DNA of 64,000 nucleotides from an uncultured archaeon (GTDB taxonomy: Archaea; Iainarchaeota; Iainarchaeia; Iainarchaeales; GCA-2688035). The stretch is from the NCBI GenBank assembly GCA_964354805.1, contig CAYHBD010000009.1, positions 96,001 through 160,000 of the forward strand, in the 5' to 3' direction. Below are positions 12,302-53,171 of the stretch, in pieces. The position numbers and the translations under genes were made by a program. Position 1 is the stretch's first letter; every line of letters starts with the position of its first letter. The notes under the pieces are model-generated. The model made no database searches and was not told where the DNA came from. It worked only from the letters and a program-made list of their open reading frames with translations.

Positions 12302-12411
12302 TTATTCCTCAATTTTTATCCCGAACTCTTCATCAATCTCTTTTGCGGTTTTCTTCACTCGTCAATTTTTATCCCGAATTCCTCATCTATTTCCTTTGCG
12401 GTTTTCTTCAT
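12302..12411 (-). repeat. Diverged tandem copy of the last 19 codons (incl. stop) of the HTH regulator gene
   Basis: Gene end MKKTAKEIDEEFGIKIDE* (12355-12411) versus copy (G)TG-KKTAKEIDEEFGIKIEE* (12302-12358). Confidence 0.9.
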
Positions 12412-22326: not shown

Positions 22327-24711
22327 ATGGACCTTGATTTCCACAAAATAGAGCAAAAATGGCAGGCGCACTGGGAAAAGAATAAGATATACAAATTCAA
22401 CCCAAAAAGCAAGCAGCCTGTTTACAGCATAGACTCACCGCCGCCGACTGTTTCTGGGACAATGCACCTGGGGCACGCATTTGCATTCACCCAGCAGGAC
22501 TTCATTGCACGCTACAAAAAAATGCGCGGTTTCAACGTTTTCCACCCGTTCGGCTTTGATAACAACGGCCTGGCAACAGCGCTGATGGTTGAAAAAAAGC
22601 TTGGAATAAAACAGAAGAATTTCCAGAGAGACGAATTCATCAAAATCGTTCTGAAGGAAACAGCGGAAGAAGAGCGCAAGATGCTTGCAGCATTCAAAAG
22701 CATTGGATTAAGCGTTGACTGGAGCCTTTTATACAGGACAATTGATGAGCTTGCAAGGAAAACAGCGCAATACAGCTTCCTTGATTTGTTCAAGCAGGGC
22801 AGGCTTTACCAGAAAGACGCTCCAACAATGTGGTGCCCGAGCTGCGAGACAGCGGTAGCACAGGCAGAGCTTGAGGACAGGGAAATTGAAAGCACCTTCA
22901 ACGACATTGTTTTCAAAACAGAGCAGGGAAAAGAGGTAATAATTGCAACAACAAGGCCGGAATTGCTGCCTGCGTGTGTTGCTGTTTTCGTTCACCCAAG
23001 CGATGAAAGATTCAATCACTTGGTTGGAAAAAAATTAAAGGTGCCGTTGTTTGATTTGCTTGTTCCAGTGCTTGAGGACCAGAGAGCAGACCCTGAAAAA
23101 GGGACAGGAATTGTAATGTGCTGCACTTTCGGAGACCAGACAGACATGGAATGGTATCAGGCGCACAACCTGCCAATGAGGGTTGCAATAACAAAAGACG
23201 GCAGAATGAACGAACTCGCGGGAAAATTCAAAGGCATGACTCTTGTTGAAGCAAGGAAAGCGGTTATTGAGGATTTGCGCAAAGAAGGTCTGCTTAAAGC
23301 ACAAAAGCCGATAAAGCACGCTGTGAATGTTCATGAGAGATGCAAAACAGAAATGGAGATTCTGCCAAGCAAACAGTGGTTTATACACTACCTTGACTTG
23401 AAAGACGAGTACATAGTGAAAGCCGATGCATTGCAATGGGTTCCAAAATTCATGAAATCAAGGTATGACAACTGGATCAAGGGATTGCAGTGGGACTGGT
23501 GCATTTCAAGGCAGCGCTATTATGGTGTGCCGTTCCCGGTATGGTACTGCAAGAAATGCGGAGAGGTAATGCTGGCTGAAGAAAAGCAATTGCCTGTTGA
23601 TCCCCTAAAAGACAATCCCTTAAAGAAATGCAAGTGCGGAAGCGGCGAATTTGTTGGGGAGAAAGACACTCTTGACACATGGTTCATTTCATCGCTCACT
23701 CCGCAGATCAACTGCAAATGGGCCGAGGATTCCGCTTTCTTCAAAAAAATGTTCCCAATGGATTTGAGGCCGCAGGGACATGACATTATTGCATTGTGGG
23801 CGTTCAACACAATTGTCAAAGCATTGTTCCACCAGCAGCAGCTGCCCTGGAAAACAATTACAATAAACGGCTGGGCGCTTGATTCCAAAGGAAAAAAGAT
23901 GTCAAAGAGCCTGGGCAATGTAATAAAGCCAGAGGAAATGATCCAGAAATACTGCGCTGACGCACTGCGCTACTGGGCAGGCCTGCCTGTATTGGGAGAG
24001 GACGTTCCATTCATGGAAAAGGAAATGGTTGCGGGAAAAAAGTTTTTGGTGAAACTGCACAATGCCGCAATGTTTGTTGCAAACTCAACAAAAGGCGTGA
24101 AAATCGGGAAAATCAATAAAAAGGAATTAATGCCTGAGGACAAAGCGATTTTGAGCAAGCTGAACAGGCTGATAAAAGAATGCACTGATGCCTGTGAAAG
24201 GTTTGAGTTCAGCAAGGCACTGAATCCAGCAAGGAATTTCTTCTGGCTGCAGTTCGCTGACTTTTACATTGAGGAAGTTAAAACAAGGGTTTACAACAAA
24301 AAAGACAAAAGCGGGAAAATAGCTGCAGCCATATTGCAGGAAGCAATTTGGGATTGCCTGCTTTTGCTTGCGCCATTTTTGCCGCACACAACGGAGGAAA
24401 TAGCGCAGACAATGTTCAAGCACAAGCTGAAAGAGGAAAGCATTCATTTGCTACAATGGCCCTCGGCAGATGAAAAAATGATTGATGAAAAAGCAGAGCA
24501 AACAGGCGAACTGATTAATGAGGTCATTGCAGCAATGAGGAAAGAGAAAAGCAAAGCGCAAAAGCCGATGAATGCGGAAGTGCAAAAAGCAATTGTTTCA
24601 TTGGCTGAACCGGAAAAGCTAAAGGAAGGGCTTGACACTATTAAAAGGACAATGAACCTAAAGGAAATTGAATTAAAGAAAGGCGAGTTGGCAGTTGAAT
24701 TGGAATTCTGA
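22327..24711 (+). CDS. valS: Valyl-tRNA synthetase (archaeal type)
   Basis: PPPTVSG..HLGH, ATTRPE, GTG.VMCCTFGD, WCISRQR, KMSKS. Confidence 0.97.
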   Translation: MDLDFHKIEQKWQAHWEKNKIYKFNPKSKQPVYSIDSPPPTVSGTMHLGHAFAFTQQDFIARYKKMRGFNVFHPFGFDNNGLATALMVEKKLGIKQKNFQRDEFIKIVLKETAEEERKMLAAFKSIGLSVDWSLLYRTIDELARKTAQYSFLDLFKQGRLYQKDAPTMWCPSCETAVAQAELEDREIESTFNDIVFKTEQGKEVIIATTRPELLPACVAVFVHPSDERFNHLVGKKLKVPLFDLLVPVLEDQRADPEKGTGIVMCCTFGDQTDMEWYQAHNLPMRVAITKDGRMNELAGKFKGMTLVEARKAVIEDLRKEGLLKAQKPIKHAVNVHERCKTEMEILPSKQWFIHYLDLKDEYIVKADALQWVPKFMKSRYDNWIKGLQWDWCISRQRYYGVPFPVWYCKKCGEVMLAEEKQLPVDPLKDNPLKKCKCGSGEFVGEKDTLDTWFISSLTPQINCKWAEDSAFFKKMFPMDLRPQGHDIIALWAFNTIVKALFHQQQLPWKTITINGWALDSKGKKMSKSLGNVIKPEEMIQKYCADALRYWAGLPVLGEDVPFMEKEMVAGKKFLVKLHNAAMFVANSTKGVKIGKINKKELMPEDKAILSKLNRLIKECTDACERFEFSKALNPARNFFWLQFADFYIEEVKTRVYNKKDKSGKIAAAILQEAIWDCLLLLAPFLPHTTEEIAQTMFKHKLKEESIHLLQWPSADEKMIDEKAEQTGELINEVIAAMRKEKSKAQKPMNAEVQKAIVSLAEPEKLKEGLDTIKRTMNLKEIELKKGELAVELEF

Positions 24712-24761
24712 AAAAAATTGAAGAAAGAAAAGGCGAGCTTGCGGTTGAAATGCAATTCTGA
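24664..24761 (+). repeat. Diverged tandem copy of the valS 3' end
   Basis: EIELKKGELAVELEF* versus KIEERKGELAVEMQF* (24714-24761). Confidence 0.85.
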
Positions 24762-35179: not shown

Positions 35180-35390
35180 TGTCACCAAAAACAATTTTTA
35201 GTTTTCTCTCCAAATTCCAAAAAATCTCCTAAAAAAATTTTAGTTTTCTTTCCAATTTCCCAAAAATCACCCAAAAAAAATTTTGATTCCACCTAATTTC
35301 CCAAAAATGCCAACCTCAAATTACCCCAAAAAAAAATTTTAATTTCCACCCACTTCCAAAAAACCTTTTTCCCAAATCACCTAAAATATT
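35180..35390 (-). repeat. Four to five degenerate tandem units of about 40-55 nt between secF and secD
   Basis: Recurring T-run/GG(T/A)GA junction and TTTGG(G)AAATT motifs on the minus strand. Confidence 0.7.
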
Positions 35391-41540: not shown

Positions 41541-43562
41541 TTGAAATCCTGCATTAAAATTCCTGCAATCGCATTCCTTGCAATGCTGTTGATCGGGGCA
41601 GCATCAGCCCAAAAAATGAGGCATAAAGAGAAAAAGTTAATACAAGCGAATTTAGTGCTAGCAATTGGTATAGTTTCTTTACTGATTTTTTTTAGTTTGG
41701 GAAGTATTAGAGAGCCAGTTAAAGAAGGTTTAACGAGCTTTGCCGTATCAAGTTTTGATGAAGTTGTTCCCAATTGTGGCAATAATCTTTGCGAGAGTGG
41801 AGAAATTGCTGAAAGTTGTCCTGATGATTGCGATATATGTTCTGAAGAAAAATGTGATGTGTATGCCCCTATTCAGCATAAGAAATATTTTAAGGCTGAA
41901 AAGGAAGTTTATGGTTATGACCCGCCTTTCCAACCAGCTCGAGTAACCTTTGACGCTAATAATAGGCCATATATCAGAAAGAATGACTGTAACACTACAA
42001 ATGACTTCGCGTTTCGATGTTTTACAAATCAGCTAATTATTCAAACCCTTAACAGCAGTGGAGAGTGGGAGTATTGGGATTTATCTAATATAGTAAAAAC
42101 ATACAAAGACCAAATGTTTAGATCCAGCACTCAAACAGATGAAAGAGTAATTATTGATTCTGACGGAGATATGTATCTTGCAGTTGAATACAATCTTGAA
42201 CCTTCTCTGCTACTTTTATATTCAAATGATGAGGGTAAAAACTGGCAGAGTTATCCTATCCAAGGGGTGTCTATGAAGTTTGAACCATGGCCAGGGCGAA
42301 ATACTCCATCAATTTTAATCACAAATCGTGATAATAAGGAATTATATTTTATTATACCCCAAAAATTATCAAATGGCACCTTAGATCTCTCCCATAAAAT
42401 AAAATTATCAGATAATGCCTGGGAACCACTAAATCCTGGAGGGTATATGAGTTATTCTTTTAGTTATGGTGATCTAACTTTTTTTGTTTGGGCAGAATCA
42501 ATTAGTTCTACTCCTAATGAAAACGGAACTCCATCTTACATTGCCGTGTATAATAGGACAAGCAGATTGTTAAGTCAACCATATCATATTGGAAATGGTG
42601 GAACTTATAATGGGGGGACAGGACTCACTGAGCCCCATAATCAACCAACCTTATGTTTGGATTCCAAAGGGTATATTCATGTTATCCTAGGAGGCCATAA
42701 TGAGCAATTTAAATATTACAAATCAAAATATCCTTTAAATATCACAAAGTGGGAAGCACCCGTCTATCTTGGGGATCCAAATATTGATAATGTACAGAAT
42801 AAACTAACTTATCCTGCACTACTTTGCGGAAAGGATGATACTTTACATCTTGCTATGCGTTCAATAATTCCTACTTATAGTTTCACTTTATCTTATACAA
42901 GAAAAAAAACAGGTCAGGGTTGGGAAAAAATTAAGCCGCTTGTTTTACCATTCAGAGCCTATTATGGACACTGGTATCATCAACTGAACATGGATAATAA
43001 TGGCGTATTGTACTTAAATTATTGGTATCTTGCAAATAATTTATTTGATGATGAGCTTGAGGCTTATCAACAAAAGTGGCCAGACGAAGACATTAATCTT
43101 AGCGGAGCATACAAACCAACAAACAACACATATTGGTGGAATCTCTATCCACTATACCACAGTCCAGCGATGCTTGTTTCCTACGATAACGGAGATTCTT
43201 GGAAGCTCGCTGTTACAAGTGATTTTATAAAAGGAATGAACAAAGAAATCTGCGGAAACCAGCAATGCGAAGCAGGCGAAACCTTTGAAAGCTGCCCAAC
43301 AGACTGCAAATGCGGCAATAGCGCCTGCGAAGTAGGCGAAACTTTCACAACATGCCCGGCAGACTGCAAATGCGGCAATGCAACATGCGACGCAGGCGAA
43401 ACATTCGAAACCTGCCCACGAGACTGCCCTCAAGAATGCGTTGACAACGAAAAACTGGTAGGCTACTATATCCCCCAGTGGAAAAGGGGGGAAATAACCA
43501 TGCTGACACTAATGCAGAAAATGAGGCAATGGAAAGCTGGAACAGGATGCCAGCCAGCATAG
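41541..43562 (+). CDS. Secreted BNR_4-like beta-propeller protein with double signal/TM segment and WKRGEI domain
   Basis: HN.P.L..DS.GYIHV..G.H, LTYP, S.D.G..W Asp-boxes; TTG start placed by analogy with paralog promoters. Confidence 0.78.
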   Translation: MKSCIKIPAIAFLAMLLIGAASAQKMRHKEKKLIQANLVLAIGIVSLLIFFSLGSIREPVKEGLTSFAVSSFDEVVPNCGNNLCESGEIAESCPDDCDICSEEKCDVYAPIQHKKYFKAEKEVYGYDPPFQPARVTFDANNRPYIRKNDCNTTNDFAFRCFTNQLIIQTLNSSGEWEYWDLSNIVKTYKDQMFRSSTQTDERVIIDSDGDMYLAVEYNLEPSLLLLYSNDEGKNWQSYPIQGVSMKFEPWPGRNTPSILITNRDNKELYFIIPQKLSNGTLDLSHKIKLSDNAWEPLNPGGYMSYSFSYGDLTFFVWAESISSTPNENGTPSYIAVYNRTSRLLSQPYHIGNGGTYNGGTGLTEPHNQPTLCLDSKGYIHVILGGHNEQFKYYKSKYPLNITKWEAPVYLGDPNIDNVQNKLTYPALLCGKDDTLHLAMRSIIPTYSFTLSYTRKKTGQGWEKIKPLVLPFRAYYGHWYHQLNMDNNGVLYLNYWYLANNLFDDELEAYQQKWPDEDINLSGAYKPTNNTYWWNLYPLYHSPAMLVSYDNGDSWKLAVTSDFIKGMNKEICGNQQCEAGETFESCPTDCKCGNSACEVGETFTTCPADCKCGNATCDAGETFETCPRDCPQECVDNEKLVGYYIPQWKRGEITMLTLMQKMRQWKAGTGCQPA

Positions 43563-47854: not shown

Positions 47855-47995
47855 ATGCCAATAAAATTGGATTTGACAAATTGAAAAATAAAATGAAAAA
47901 AAATTTAAAAGTGAAAAAAACATGCCGATAAAATTGGATTCACTGACAGGCGAGAAAAAAAGTAAGTGATAATTATGCCGATAAAAATTGACATT
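47855..47995 (+). repeat. Three copies of the DP2 start: MPIKLDL, MPIKLDS, MPIKIDI
   Basis: ATGCC(A/G)ATAAAA at 47855, 47922 and 47975. Confidence 0.85.
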
Positions 47996-50900
47996 GATGC
48001 AAGTAGTGCGGTTAAGAGCTACTATGATTCAGTTGCAGCTGAAGTGGAAAAACAGCTTTCCGTTGCAGCAGAGGCAAAGTCAAGGGGCTTTGATGTAAGC
48101 ACTGCAATCGAAACAAAGCCTGTGGCAGACCTTGCCGACAGGACTGAAACAATTATCGGGCCGCCGGGAATTGCAAAAAGGTACAGGGAAGTGTTTGAGG
48201 AAAAGAATGGAAACAGGATGGATGCAATATTCCAAATATTCAAGGAAATAATCGACCAGCAGTGGTGCAAGATTGTGGACGACCAGAAAAGGATTGAACA
48301 GGCAATCAAAACATGCCTTGTTTTGAATACCGAGGGCGTTGTTGTTGCACCGCTTGACGGGGTGCCTGAAATAAAAATAAGCAGAAACCCTGATGGAAGC
48401 AAATACATCGATGTTTACTACGCAGGCCCGATAAGGGCAGCAGGCGGAACATCAGCAGTATTGCCGCTTATTTTAGGGGATTACGCAAAGCAGTTGCTCG
48501 GTCTGGACAGGTTCAAGCCGACAGAGGATGAAGTGGAGAGATATGTTGAAGAATGCCAGATTTATGAAGAGATTGTAAGCAGGCAGTACAGGCTGAGCGA
48601 GGCTGAAGTGAAAAAAATAATTAGGGGCTGCACTGTGTGCATCAACGGCGAACCAACGGAAGAAAGGGAAGTGGCAGTGCACAGGAACCTGCCGAGAATT
48701 GAAAGCAACAGGATAAGGGGCGGAATGTGCCTTGTGATAAGCGAAGGCGTTGCACTAAAAGCGCCGAAGATTCTGCAGTTTTCGAAACAGCTTGGATTGG
48801 ACTGGAGCTGGCTTGAAGGAATAATAAAGGTGGGAAAAAGCGAAAGCGGCGAGAGAAAAATTGAGCCGAACGAAAAGTTTTTGGAGGGCACAGCAGCTGG
48901 AAGGCCGATCTTCTGCTATCCTGAGCGAATCGGGGGCTTCAGGCTGCGCTACGGCAAAGCAAGAAACACCGGGATAATGGGGAAAGGGATTCACCCTGCA
49001 ACAATGTTTCTGCTGGATGAATTTGTTGCTGTTGCAACACAGCTGAAAGTGGAAAGGCCTGGAAAAGCAGCAGGAATTTTCCCGGTTGATTCTATTGAAG
49101 GGCCGATAGTAAAGCTGCTGAACGGCTACGTTGTGAAAGTAAACAGCCTGCAGCAGGCAATTGAATTGAAACAGAAAATTGCCCAGATTCTTTTCTTGGG
49201 TGACATTCTTGTAAGCGTTGGCGATTTTCGGCACAGCGCCCATCCATTGGTGCCAGCCGGCTATTGTAGTGAATGGTGGGCAAAGGAACTGCAAAGGCAG
49301 CTGCGAAAAATCCCTGTGGAAAAAGAGCAGTTCGAGGAAATAATTGCAAAGCCGGAAAATGTAAGCATTGAACAGGCAATTGAATTGAGCGAAAAATTCA
49401 ATGCGCCGCTGCACCCGAACGCGCTGTATTACTATGACGCTTTGAACAAAAATGAATTAATTCAATTAATTAGTTTCTTGCAGAAAGCTGAAACAACCAA
49501 AGAAGGCAAAAAAATTTCCGCGATTGAATTGCCAAAACAAGGAGCGGAAAAACAACTGCTTGAAAAAATTGGTTTGCCACACAAGGTTGAGGGCGACAAA
49601 ATAATAATTGACGCAGATAATGCCCTTGCTTTAACCAAAACACTTGCCTTGCAGAAAAGCAGCCCTGAAATTGCAGGCATAATAGAAAAATCCGCTGATG
49701 TAATTGACGCATTGAACAATTTAAGCGGCCTTGTGATTAGAGACCTTTGCGGAACATTTGTCGGAAGCAGGATGGGCAGGCCTGAGGCAAGCAGGCCGAG
49801 GAAAATGATCGGAAACCCAAACGTGCTTTTCCCAATAGGCTTGCACGGTGGCAACATCAGGAGCGTCAACAAGGCAATGGCAAGTGAAACAGAGGGCAGC
49901 CCAGGCAAAATACTGGTTGAAATAGCTTTATTCAAATGCCCGGAATGCAGGCAGGTAAGGGAGCAGCCATTCTGCCCTGCATGCGGCAAAAGAGCTGAAA
50001 AAATAAACCAGTGCCCGAACTGCGGCAGCATTTCTGCAACGGAAAAATGCGCAAAATGCGGCAAGATGACATCGCCTTTCTCAAAAAGGGAGATTGACCT
50101 AGGCCTTACAATGCAACAGGCAGCACAGAACCTTGGCATAAAAGTGCCTGAACTTGTAAAAGGAGTAAAAGGGACAATAAACAAGGACAGAGTAACCGAA
50201 CCCCTGGAAAAAGGACTGCTGAGAGCAAAGCACGACATGCATGTTTTCAGGGACGCGACAATAAGGTATGAGCTGATAAATGCGCCCTTAACGCACTTCA
50301 CTGCAGCAGAGATTGGAATAAGCATTGCCAAGCTGCGCGAATTAGGCTACAGTAAGGACAGTGAAGGAAAGGAATTGGAAAAGAACGGGCAATTGGTCGA
50401 ATTAATGCCCCAGGACATAATAATCCACGAGCAGGCAGGCGAATTCTTTGCAAAAGAAACAAAATTCATAGACGAACTGCTGCAGCGCTTCTACAAAATA
50501 CAGCCATACTTCAACGTAAACAAAAAAGAAGATTTGGTGGGGCAACTGCTGCTTGGGCTAGCACCCCACACAAGCGCGGCAATAGTCGGCAGGGTGATTG
50601 GCTTCACAAAAGCAAGATGCTGCTTTGCCCACCCATTCTTCCACCAGACAAAGAGGCGAAACATAGACGGAGACCAGGATTCACTGCTTCTGCTTATGGA
50701 TGCCCTGCTGAATTTCTCGCATTCGTATCTGCCGAGCAGCAGGGGAGGCAGAATGGATGCACCGCTCGTTTTCACCATTGCCTTGAAACCAACAGAAATA
50801 GATGATGAGTGCTATCAAATGGAGAAATGCAGCAGCTATCCGCTTGAATTGTATGAAATGGCCCAGAAAATAATGCCGGCTGATGTAAGCGGCATTGAAA

Positions 50901-51412
50901 GAGTGAAAGACAGCCTTGGCAAGCAAAGCCAGTATGACGGATTCGAGTGCACGCATTCAACAAGCCAGTTTGATGCCGGTCCTACAACAAGCAGATATGT
51001 TACGCTTGGCACAATGGAGGAAAAGCTGAGGGCGCAGGCAAAACTGCAGTTCAAAATCGCGGCATGCGAAGGAAAAGACGCCATGGAAAGAGTGATGGTA
51101 TCGCACCTTTTGCCTGACATAATCGGAAACACCAGGGCATTCAGCAGGCAGCAGTTTCGCTGCACTGCATGCAACGCAAAAATGAGGAGGATTCCGCTTG
51201 ACGGAAAATGCATTCAGTGCGGAAAACCCAGCGTCATTCTGACAATAGCGCAGGGCAGCGTGCGAAAATACCTGCTGATAGCGAAAGCGCTTGCGGAAGA
51301 ATACCAGCTAAGCGATTACCTGAAGCAGAGGCTTGAATTAGCCGGCAGGGAAATAGACAGCATATTCCAAAACGAGCAAAAAGAGCAAAAAAAGCTGGCG
51401 GAATTTGTTTAA
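47975..51412 (+). CDS. polC: DNA polymerase D large subunit DP2
   Basis: TEGVVVAP, YAGPIRAAGGT, GGFRLRYG, RMGRPE, catalytic DGDQD, RGGRMDAPLV; no intein visible. Confidence 0.98.
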   Translation: MPIKIDIDASSAVKSYYDSVAAEVEKQLSVAAEAKSRGFDVSTAIETKPVADLADRTETIIGPPGIAKRYREVFEEKNGNRMDAIFQIFKEIIDQQWCKIVDDQKRIEQAIKTCLVLNTEGVVVAPLDGVPEIKISRNPDGSKYIDVYYAGPIRAAGGTSAVLPLILGDYAKQLLGLDRFKPTEDEVERYVEECQIYEEIVSRQYRLSEAEVKKIIRGCTVCINGEPTEEREVAVHRNLPRIESNRIRGGMCLVISEGVALKAPKILQFSKQLGLDWSWLEGIIKVGKSESGERKIEPNEKFLEGTAAGRPIFCYPERIGGFRLRYGKARNTGIMGKGIHPATMFLLDEFVAVATQLKVERPGKAAGIFPVDSIEGPIVKLLNGYVVKVNSLQQAIELKQKIAQILFLGDILVSVGDFRHSAHPLVPAGYCSEWWAKELQRQLRKIPVEKEQFEEIIAKPENVSIEQAIELSEKFNAPLHPNALYYYDALNKNELIQLISFLQKAETTKEGKKISAIELPKQGAEKQLLEKIGLPHKVEGDKIIIDADNALALTKTLALQKSSPEIAGIIEKSADVIDALNNLSGLVIRDLCGTFVGSRMGRPEASRPRKMIGNPNVLFPIGLHGGNIRSVNKAMASETEGSPGKILVEIALFKCPECRQVREQPFCPACGKRAEKINQCPNCGSISATEKCAKCGKMTSPFSKREIDLGLTMQQAAQNLGIKVPELVKGVKGTINKDRVTEPLEKGLLRAKHDMHVFRDATIRYELINAPLTHFTAAEIGISIAKLRELGYSKDSEGKELEKNGQLVELMPQDIIIHEQAGEFFAKETKFIDELLQRFYKIQPYFNVNKKEDLVGQLLLGLAPHTSAAIVGRVIGFTKARCCFAHPFFHQTKRRNIDGDQDSLLLLMDALLNFSHSYLPSSRGGRMDAPLVFTIALKPTEIDDECYQMEKCSSYPLELYEMAQKIMPADVSGIERVKDSLGKQSQYDGFECTHSTSQFDAGPTTSRYVTLGTMEEKLRAQAKLQFKIAACEGKDAMERVMVSHLLPDIIGNTRAFSRQQFRCTACNAKMRRIPLDGKCIQCGKPSVILTIAQGSVRKYLLIAKALAEEYQLSDYLKQRLELAGREIDSIFQNEQKEQKKLAEFV

Positions 51413-51492
51413 GTGGAAGGGCAGACCCGAAACAATGTTTTTTAAAATAAACCTGAAAATCTTATTTATATAAACTGCTAAAGGGAAAAAGT

Positions 51493-51774
51493 ATGGCTGC
51501 GAATAAACCTGCATTTCACGGGATTACAAAATCAAGTATGCACAATGTTGGTGGCGGCAGGCGCAGAGGAGGCACCAGAGGAGTCAGCGTTTACAAAAAC
51601 GTGGTCATACTAAAGCCAGGGCAGAGAATAGTTTACAGATCAAGCTGCCCGCATAGCATTGTGGACGCAAAAGGGAGAACAATTAGACTTTTCAAGGAGT
51701 GGGCATTAACAGCAAGGAAAAAGATAAGCAGGCAAGGGGGTAATAAACCCACGTCGATGAGTGAAGAGGTATAA
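51493..51774 (+). CDS. Small basic hypothetical protein
   Basis: 93-aa ORF with TATA-like TTTATATA upstream. Confidence 0.5.
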   Translation: MAANKPAFHGITKSSMHNVGGGRRRGGTRGVSVYKNVVILKPGQRIVYRSSCPHSIVDAKGRTIRLFKEWALTARKKISRQGGNKPTSMSEEV

Positions 51775-51787
51775 AAGGGCCAAAAAA

Positions 51788-51899
51788 TTATTCTCCCATC
51801 AATTCCTTTTCCAAAACAGCCCTGAGTTTTTTTGTGCCGAAGGTTTTATTCTCCCATCAGCTCTTTTTCCAGCACAGCTCTTAATTTTTTCGCATCGAA
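51788..51899 (-). repeat. Synonymously diverged tandem copy of the cdc6 3' end
   Basis: FDAKKLRAVLEKELMGE* (51846-51899) versus FGTKKLRAVLEKELMGE* (51788-51841). Confidence 0.92.
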
Positions 51900-53171
51900 C
51901 CCGAGCTTTATGAGCGTGGTTGCTCCCCTTACTCCTTTTCCGCTTGCTGTTGTCAAAAGCAGCCCGTATGTGTCCAATTCATTGATGTATTCCCTGAACC
52001 ATCTGCTGCTTACAACGCTTTCGTTCAGGGAGAGAGCAATGCGCTTGTATTCGTTGTAGATGTCACCGCTGCAGAAAACGCCTTCCTCGCTTTGGCCTGA
52101 ACCTGTTATTCTCTGCATTCCTTTTCCCTGTGTTGTGAGCAGGGAAATCGCGTACAACACCAGCTGCTGCTGCTTTGGCAGGGTTGCAACCATGTTAAGG
52201 ATGATTTCCTGTTCAACGCTTGTCTTTGCCTTTCTTACCATGACATCAGTTACCTCGCTGAATTGCATTTTGTCCGCCTCTTCTCCGGCTCTAAGAAGCA
52301 GCATTATTGCTGTTCTTGCATCCCCTGTTTCCTGCGCTGCGATTGCGGATGCGAGGTTGATTGCGCTGCTGCTTACAGCGCCGGGCCTGAATGCCTTTGC
52401 AATCCTTTCCTGTAGGATTGCCTTGAGCTCTTCAGCGTTGTAAGGCGGGAAAACCATTTCTTTTTCCAAGAGTGCGCTTTTTGTTCTTGCATCAAGGCGC
52501 TCTTTGAAGAAAAGGTTGTTGCTTATTCCAAGGATGCTGATGCTACCGAATGGCAGCTCGTCGTTTGCCCTTGTAAGCGAGTAAACCAGTTCGTCCAAAT
52601 CCTTGGCTTTGTCTATTTCATCCAGCACAATGATGAGGTTCTTTCCTTTTTCAGATGCCGCCTGCAGCAGTTTTTCGAACACAAAGGAAGCGCTGTATCC
52701 AATGAAGTCCTCTTTTGGATGGAATTTCTGCATTGCCTTGAGCAGAACCTTATATTTGCTGTTGTGGTTTCTGCAGTTAACGAAAGCGAAGTCAACTGGC
52801 GAATTGCTTTGCTCAATGAATTGCTGCAATTGCTGCAATACGTGCTTTACAGTGACTGTTTTTCCTGTTCCGACTTTTCCGTAAATGAAAACATTGTCTG
52901 CTTTTTTCCCCTGCAGAGTTGCAGCAAGCGCTGTGCTGATTTGCTCGATCTGCTTTTGCCTGAATGGCAGGGCATCAGGGACATAGTGCGGGGAAATAAT
53001 GTTTTTATCCAGAAAAACAGTGTGCTTTGTGATAAACTGCTGGAAAATGTTCTGCTGCGGAAATGTTTCGTCCTGTAGTGAAACAATTTTTTTCTGCTGC
53101 AGCAATGTTTCGTTCTGCGCTGAAACAATTTTCTGCCCCAGTCCCACCAATGTCTGCTGTGCCACACCCAT
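51846..53171 (-). CDS. cdc6: Orc1/Cdc6 replication initiator
   Basis: YVP..LP.R, G..GTGKT, LDEID, F.PY...EL..IL..R, GDAR; C-terminal winged helix. Confidence 0.97.
   Translation of the reverse strand: MGVAQQTLVGLGQKIVSAQNETLLQQKKIVSLQDETFPQQNIFQQFITKHTVFLDKNIISPHYVPDALPFRQKQIEQISTALAATLQGKKADNVFIYGKVGTGKTVTVKHVLQQLQQFIEQSNSPVDFAFVNCRNHNSKYKVLLKAMQKFHPKEDFIGYSASFVFEKLLQAASEKGKNLIIVLDEIDKAKDLDELVYSLTRANDELPFGSISILGISNNLFFKERLDARTKSALLEKEMVFPPYNAEELKAILQERIAKAFRPGAVSSSAINLASAIAAQETGDARTAIMLLLRAGEEADKMQFSEVTDVMVRKAKTSVEQEIILNMVATLPKQQQLVLYAISLLTTQGKGMQRITGSGQSEEGVFCSGDIYNEYKRIALSLNESVVSSRWFREYINELDTYGLLLTTASGKGVRGATTLIKLGFDAKKLRAVLEKELMGE

Follow-up and report, generated by a model that had tools for sequence, protein, structure and literature searches.

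Microhomology-mediated tandem duplications (MTDs), a kind of short tandem duplication, have been reported to arise de novo in bacteria, archaea, fungi, and viruses (bioRxiv 10.64898/2026.02.28.708716; PMC13167724). Mosaic alleles, of which the transformation mosaics in PMC13344027 are an example, are patched by homologous recombination between strains, with block-wise jumps in divergence and short donor patches. A further related arrangement is found at Rhs and T6SS loci, where homology-facilitated illegitimate recombination displaces 3′ ends (PMC5361080), an orphaned former 3′ end lies just downstream, and alleles are exchanged (Jackson et al. 2009, via PMC5361080). The components of the locus described below are ordinary, namely tandem duplication and allelic recombination, and the nearest descriptions are MTDs and recombination mosaics.

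The locus lies in a 64,000-nucleotide stretch of DNA (the window) from an uncultured DPANN archaeon. It contains the working end of an orc1/cdc6 gene (the live tail) and, downstream of it, a dead copy of that end (the echo). The relevant features are:

51846–53171, minus strand: orc1/cdc6 gene, 441 amino acids, recognized from its open reading frame and the Pfam Cdc6_lid, Cdc6_C, and AAA domains
51846–51890, minus strand: live tail, the last 14 codons of the gene plus TAA, which translates as KKLRAVLEKELMGE*, the same protein in the five alleles of the genus
51788–51832, minus strand: echo, a 45-base dead copy of the tail, also KKLRAVLEKELMGE*, with 8 silent base differences from the live tail
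51833–51845, minus strand: spacer of 13 bases from the live stop to the echo, with no convincing alignment to anything
51867–51884, minus strand: 18-base patch over tail codons 3–8, in which the X1 contig and the window show 8 differences, all silent, and whose 3′ edge marks a crossover point
47966–51412, plus strand: DP2, the large subunit of DNA polymerase II, in convergent orientation to cdc6, recognized from Pfam PolC_DP2_N and the central and catalytic domains
51413–51784, plus strand: lineage-specific insertion of 372 bases between the DP2 stop and the echo, with a 93-residue open reading frame (ORF93) at 51493–51774

The preliminary description of this DNA reported that the copies share 14 residues, with seven codons changed synonymously and the stop intact. 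This is correct, both copies being KKLRAVLEKELMGE followed by TAA. The codons differ (live/echo) as TTA/CTC, AGA/AGG, GTG/GTT, CTG/TTG, AAA/AAG, GAG/GAA, and CTG/TTG, that is, at eight bases in seven codons (T/C, A/C, A/G, G/T, C/T, A/G, G/A, and C/T) with no amino acid change and an identity of 37/45 (82%). The copies are spaced 58 bases from start to start, and their local alignment score is 50 versus a maximum of 22 in 200 shuffles. Eight random substitutions would leave the protein and the stop unchanged with P ~0 to 2.5e-5. A model in which the two copies change at the same neutral rate, and only silent changes survive in the live one, yields nothing but silent differences with P ~2e-4 to 7e-4; with 40 echoes counted as trials the family-wise P is roughly 0.01–0.03. 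Chance alone is not a comfortable explanation of the all-silent pattern, even with 40 trials allowed.

The homology between tail and echo ends abruptly 5′ of two Lys codons. Beyond this border, 8/13 bases of the spacer differ from the live GFDA codons, against 8/45 within the tail (Fisher p=0.004), and the sharpness of the border means that the real echo comprises 45 bases and not the full 58-base period. The LGFDAKK segment is the most conserved part of the tail among 29 relatives, and in the window echo the family-invariant LGFDA codons are lost. A poly-A run is present at the 5′ edge of the echo, beside the spacer, and could represent a microhomology arm or a crossover point. The spacer matches the echo of L031, a metagenome contig from a sister species (cdc6 92% identical at the amino acid level, by codon alignment), at 5/13 positions by hand count on the alignment. 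A derivation of the spacer from the L031 spacer plus a GFDA copy was rejected, the agreement (5/13 ungapped, ~8/12 with two gaps, by hand) being at chance level. A 12-base long-range inverted repeat (I4) is A/T-rich and was treated as chance.

The gene carrying this tail has the make-up of a replication initiator, with an AAA+ ATPase, a Cdc6 lid, and a C-terminal winged-helix domain by Pfam; Cdc6_lid scores 66 bits, Cdc6_C 62 bits (residues 328–430), and AAA_16 and AAA_22 are above the cut-off. Orthologues occur in 41/41 related genomes. The stops of cdc6 and the convergent DP2 gene are 0–20 bases apart in many relatives; L002, L003, L004, L006, L013, L019, and L028 are among the loci with this short junction. 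The junction measures 590–790 bases in L005, L007, L008, L011, L014–L017, L021, and L022, apparently through insertion of a small gene. It looks like a recurrent insertion site. The 372-base insertion is missing in L031, whose adjacent positions 2332/2333 correspond to 51412/51785 of the window and whose echo stop is 1 base from the DP2 stop. ORF93 has one copy in the genome and matches no Pfam family; neither L031 nor the related loci searched contain it. Contigs from two sequencing runs, X1 and X2, match the window without differences in this region. At the other end of the gene, the cdc6 N-terminus (53048–53132) contains in-frame tandem repeats of period 21/42, and the five alleles of the genus have one, two, or four 7-residue units or two 14-residue units. 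This variation in number indicates that the duplication process acts inside genes too, where the frame is kept.

Short repeats of this kind are abundant in the genome. A census of its 1.38 Mb counted 180 short near-repeats in tandem, whose periods peak at 40–60 bases, and 40/180 are copies of the 3′ end of a gene just past its stop. The cdc6 echo is one of about 130 short tandem duplications in the genome (1.4 Mb). Some of these are internal repeats that stay in frame and some are tandem units in full; the window's other examples are of the latter, full kind. Two adjoining head-to-tail copies are found in both species (45 bases at a spacing of 58 in the window; 60/64 in L031). Like an MTD, the echo is a head-to-tail copy of a few dozen bases which survives where no reading frame is disrupted, and it is one of many such loci of narrow size range. 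It differs from MTDs in that any microhomology arms are no longer readable, the borders having decayed and only 45/58 bases aligning, and in that ~130 loci in 1.4 Mb, concentrated at gene junctions, are unusual. Further near-repeats of two to three copies, with periods of 42–60 and 73–89% identity, are found in the window at 12302–12410, 24661–24761, and 27665, and the same kind occurs at 35186–35284, 43266–43427, and 62617–62737; these look like further members of the class that includes the cdc6 echo.

The other 39 3′ echoes, when pooled, show 47 silent versus 134 replacement codons among those that differ, which looks like neutral decay. With 7 silent and 0 replacement codons the cdc6 echo is an extreme outlier among the 3′ echoes of this genome. 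The sister species nevertheless shows what happens to such a copy. Translated, the L031 echo gives S G F D A K K L R A V F E K E L T G, after which one base is deleted; 60/64 bases of its unit align, and the GFDA codons are still recognizable. Neutral evolution of the dead copy is thus seen in the L031 echo and in the pooled count, the window echo having changed marginally more slowly than expected. It had been proposed that both copies evolved under coding constraint. For the echo this is contradicted by the replacements L>S, L>F, and M>T and the 1-base deletion in L031, and in the window by the loss of the LGFDA codons, the lack of a start codon, and a +1 frame relative to cdc6. The echo is not under coding constraint. 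The second copy, lying beyond a stop codon that the first has retained, is never translated and is harmless.

Diversity-generating retroelements are known in DPANN archaea, and the locus, itself in such a lineage, resembles them by its diverged repeat close to a gene's 3′ end; it differs in that the repeat is only 45 bases long and the protein is unchanged. A template/variable repeat pair was rejected, as the mismatches are not adenine-specific (1/8 in one direction, 3/8 in the other). Duplication of an att site was also rejected, there being only 13 bases between the copies and no integrase element; the adjoining 372-base insertion consists of the 93-residue ORF without family.

Why all of the differences are silent becomes clear from other alleles. 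The last ~55 residues of cdc6, with the tail KKLRAVLEKELMGE included, are the same in all five known alleles of the genus, three of which (P0001, P0121, and P0122, 94% identical) were compared as proteins. With the tail protein invariant, only silent changes can be fixed in a live copy. The eight differences became fixed in functional genes, whose protein tail tolerates no change, and this is why every one of them is silent. The family set comprised 23 representative genomes, none closer than 76% in nucleotide identity, and the haplotype history was drawn from L031 and short Logan contigs.

An X2 contig, continuous with the cdc6 body, shows that the echo type is also alive. Its last 27 bases match the echo at 24/27 positions and the window live tail at 16/27, and the allele, AAG CTC AGG GCA GTT TTA GAA AAG GAA TT., has every codon state that defines the echo. 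The preliminary description had suggested a search for a cdc6 allele ending in exactly the echo sequence: a live allele of the echo type exists, and at 24/27 its match is inexact. Run X3, which like run X4 accounts for a small share, covers only ~51782–51832, which might represent another live tail of the echo type. In L003, from another genus (~75% nucleotide identity gene-wide), the live tail is 3/45 from the echo and 11/45 from the window live tail, the usual distance between tails of different genera being 11–16/45. The same L003 (G001) tail agrees with the window echo at 42/45 positions, yet with its own congener L002 at only 32/45; being closer to the window echo than to a congener, it indicates that tail alleles do not follow the genome tree. 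By outgroup comparison the echo is the ancestral-type copy, carrying the older states at the eight differences, and the live tail the changed one. The L031 and window echoes differ at 4/44 bases, and codon 3 is CTC in the window echo and TTA in that of L031, which reflects either two duplication events or later overwriting of one copy.

The comparison with L031 likewise points to the live tail. Over 51846–51924 (the last 26 codons) 20/79 bases (25%) differ between window and L031, all silently, as against ~8% in the rest of the gene. At degenerate third positions of the tail 8/13 differ versus 0.195 gene-wide (P=0.001). The live tail carries 8 silent changes on ~9.7 silent sites, while the gene-wide 4-fold divergence is 0.22–0.29, and it is the over-diverged partner. 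TTA, AGA, and a C in codon 7 are derived states common to the window and L031 live tails; in the gene body, the window, X, and L031 types look equidistant (star-like). The window echo has undergone 0–3 changes versus ~6–7 expected (P ~0.03–0.09, Poisson from the 4-fold divergence), a slowness that is only mildly unusual.

One contig captures an exchange at the tail. X1 record 3, a Logan contig of 153 bases from an independent run, spans 51762–51914 without gaps and so includes flank, echo, spacer, and live tail. It is identical to the window over 105 bases (51762–51866), comprising flank, echo, spacer, and codon 9 to the stop. Past this point there are 8 differences within 18 bases, all silent, five of them being the letters of the echo, and the patch corresponds to X/Z-type codons 3–7. 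An overlapping contig of the cdc6 body, X1 record 4, is ~13% diverged from the window, and the contigs of run X1 for the DP2 end and ORF93 are identical to it. Both parental types have been observed, namely the window type and an X body with an echo-type tail, from which it follows that the X1 contig is a recombinant. X1 record 3 is a crossover inside the live tail. It demonstrates that exchange occurs at the tail, not that the window's own tail was imported. The change from 0% to ~13% divergence within the tail of a single contig resembles the block-wise jumps and short donor patches of recombination mosaics (for example PMC13344027); the difference is that at cdc6 one partner has been kept next door as a dead copy, so that the old allele can be read directly.

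From these data we lean toward a history in which a tandem duplication of the cdc6 end was followed by allele exchange between strains, leaving behind a nonfunctional echo of ancestral type. The process would have begun with a short head-to-tail duplication of the last ~20 codons of orc1/cdc6 across a formerly very tight convergent junction with DP2. This duplication presumably opened the junction, and the second copy of the tail would have been dead from the start. Local tandem duplication is the simplest origin of the echo, as opposed to insertion of a foreign piece. The echo would retain the ancestral-type tail CTC AGG GCT GTT TTG GAA AAG GAA TTG, which still serves as a working gene end in related strains, and it would have hardly changed, without constraint being the cause. 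The live tail, by comparison, would belong to a different and more derived allele lineage. Most likely, ordinary homologous recombination with another strain placed it beside the echo, the crossover falling within the tail or next to it; the old echo of a donor may, for instance, have paired with the live tail of the recipient. The duplication, its decay in the sister lineage, a live allele of the echo type, and one recombinant contig are all at hand in the assembled sequences, and from them we infer the order of events and the import, rather than divergence in place, of the window's live tail. Import is favored by the excess silent divergence and block-like extent of the live tail, by the derived states that it has in common with the L031 live tail despite a star-like gene body, and by the sharp contrast in age within the echo. 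The proposal that the echo derives from a different functional cdc6 allele thus holds in so far as there are two allele lineages, with the echo type live in X2; it does not hold for the echo itself, which is not constrained, need not have been imported, and is the older, resident-type copy.

Several other explanations were weighed against this history. The tandem layout is real DNA, since three independent assemblies show it: the window, L031 (where the species' own echo follows right after the stop with a period of 64), and X1 record 3. The concern that the two versions might reside on separate molecules is answered by X1, in which echo and live tail share one contig. That an assembler set two strain variants of the cdc6 end in tandem is hardly credible: strain variants of the tail do occur together in the same samples, but the copies have no run longer than 14 bases in common, which would not entangle an assembly graph with k=31, the layout recurs in an independent Logan contig and in another species' contig with its own decayed echo, and the majority of the remaining echoes in the genome look neutrally decayed and lack strain-type silent variation. 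We also consider it very improbable that the echo is functional, whether translated after a +1 shift as a doubled tail or acting as an RNA or DNA element (terminator, spacer) which slows its decay. The window and L031 echoes, with periods of 58 and 64, are both in the +1 frame and open from the last codons of cdc6, the window copy has changed less than 4-fold sites (P 0.001–0.02), and T-runs flank it on both strands. Against this, a downstream frame kept as protein across relatives is not seen, the L031 echo being frameshifted and altered by replacements, and there is no slippery motif at GGA GAA TAA A; a +1 frameshift extension of cdc6 was ruled out on these grounds. The echo matches nothing in Rfam, gives no signal of folding (z 0.27 and 1.22), and contains no terminator-like hairpin, and a structured RNA or terminator was accordingly rejected. 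Sigma-70 hits have no bearing on an archaeon. Among 28 relatives belonging to other genera, none has an echo after cdc6. In L028 a 31-base stretch ~129 bases past the cdc6 stop resembles that genome's own cdc6 tail (score 34 versus a shuffle maximum of 23) and may be an independent echo.

Two further accounts concern where the live tail came from. A possible, though doubtful, one is that an old tandem duplication diverged in place, the live copy drifting silently and the echo remaining nearly unchanged by luck, with no import. It is congruent with an echo of ancestral type by outgroup comparison, with an L031 echo that has decayed about as expected for neutral DNA, and with an invariant tail protein, which renders changes in the live copy automatically silent; X1 record 3, moreover, can be explained from the two observed parental types without recourse to the window's history. 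What weighs against it is the low probability of the all-silent outcome at equal neutral rates (P ~2e-4 to 7e-4; family-wise roughly 0.01–0.03), the 8 silent changes of the live tail on ~9.7 sites where the gene-wide 4-fold divergence to L031 is 0.22–0.29, the sharing of derived TTA, AGA, and codon-7 C by the window and L031 live tails when the gene body is equidistant, and the contrast of 8/13 with 8/45, which is unexpected under uniform decay. Decidedly unlikely is a one-step displacement of the C-terminus, in which an incoming cdc6 allele, joined by homologous recombination within the gene and by an illegitimate event at the distal end, brought its own stop and 13 bases and pushed the former resident tail downstream as the echo. 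The pristine 45-base block does abut 13 unrelated bases at a poly-A run, a possible microhomology joint, an echo-type live allele exists, and 3′ ends are displaced in this manner at Rhs and T6SS loci (PMC5361080). The period of 58, however, falls within the narrow modal range (40–60) of ~130 tandem duplications, the in-frame internal repeats and full tandem units of the genome are not products of displacement, the L031 echo keeps 60/64 bases of the unit as a plain tandem duplication would, and illegitimate joins are reported to be orders of magnitude rarer than homologous exchange (PMC5361080). In our analysis an Rhs-style single step would thus fit the cdc6 locus but fit the genome-wide class of tandem units poorly. 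The likeness to Rhs is also limited: Rhs tips are long and encode differing toxins with immunity genes, whereas the cdc6 orphan is 45 bases long, specifies the same 14 residues, and belongs to a housekeeping gene. Divergent toxin tips with cognate immunity were not found at the locus, where the residues are the same and no immunity-like gene lies downstream.

Under the favored history of duplication followed by allele exchange, the silent-only pattern, which looked like proof of a special mechanism of gene-end replacement, has an ordinary cause that is revealed by population and outgroup data. The case cautions against inferring selection on a copy from the finding that it differs from its neighboring gene only at silent positions. 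It is also a rare one, since ~110 bases suffice to read the ancestral allele, its live descendant elsewhere, the derived allele, and a recombinant. A broader and, in our opinion, unlikely idea is that duplicated gene ends serve in this lineage as recombination landing pads which archive alleles. The old echo of an incoming haplotype would pair with the working tail of the recipient and demote the recipient's end to a fresh echo. If that were true, echoes of conserved gene ends would constitute a genome-wide record of past swaps of gene ends between lineages, and live tails with too much silent divergence would point to gene junctions as places of frequent exchange between lineages. The locus itself attests directly to homologous recombination among strains of an uncultured DPANN archaeon, which exchange DNA with crossovers at the ends of genes.
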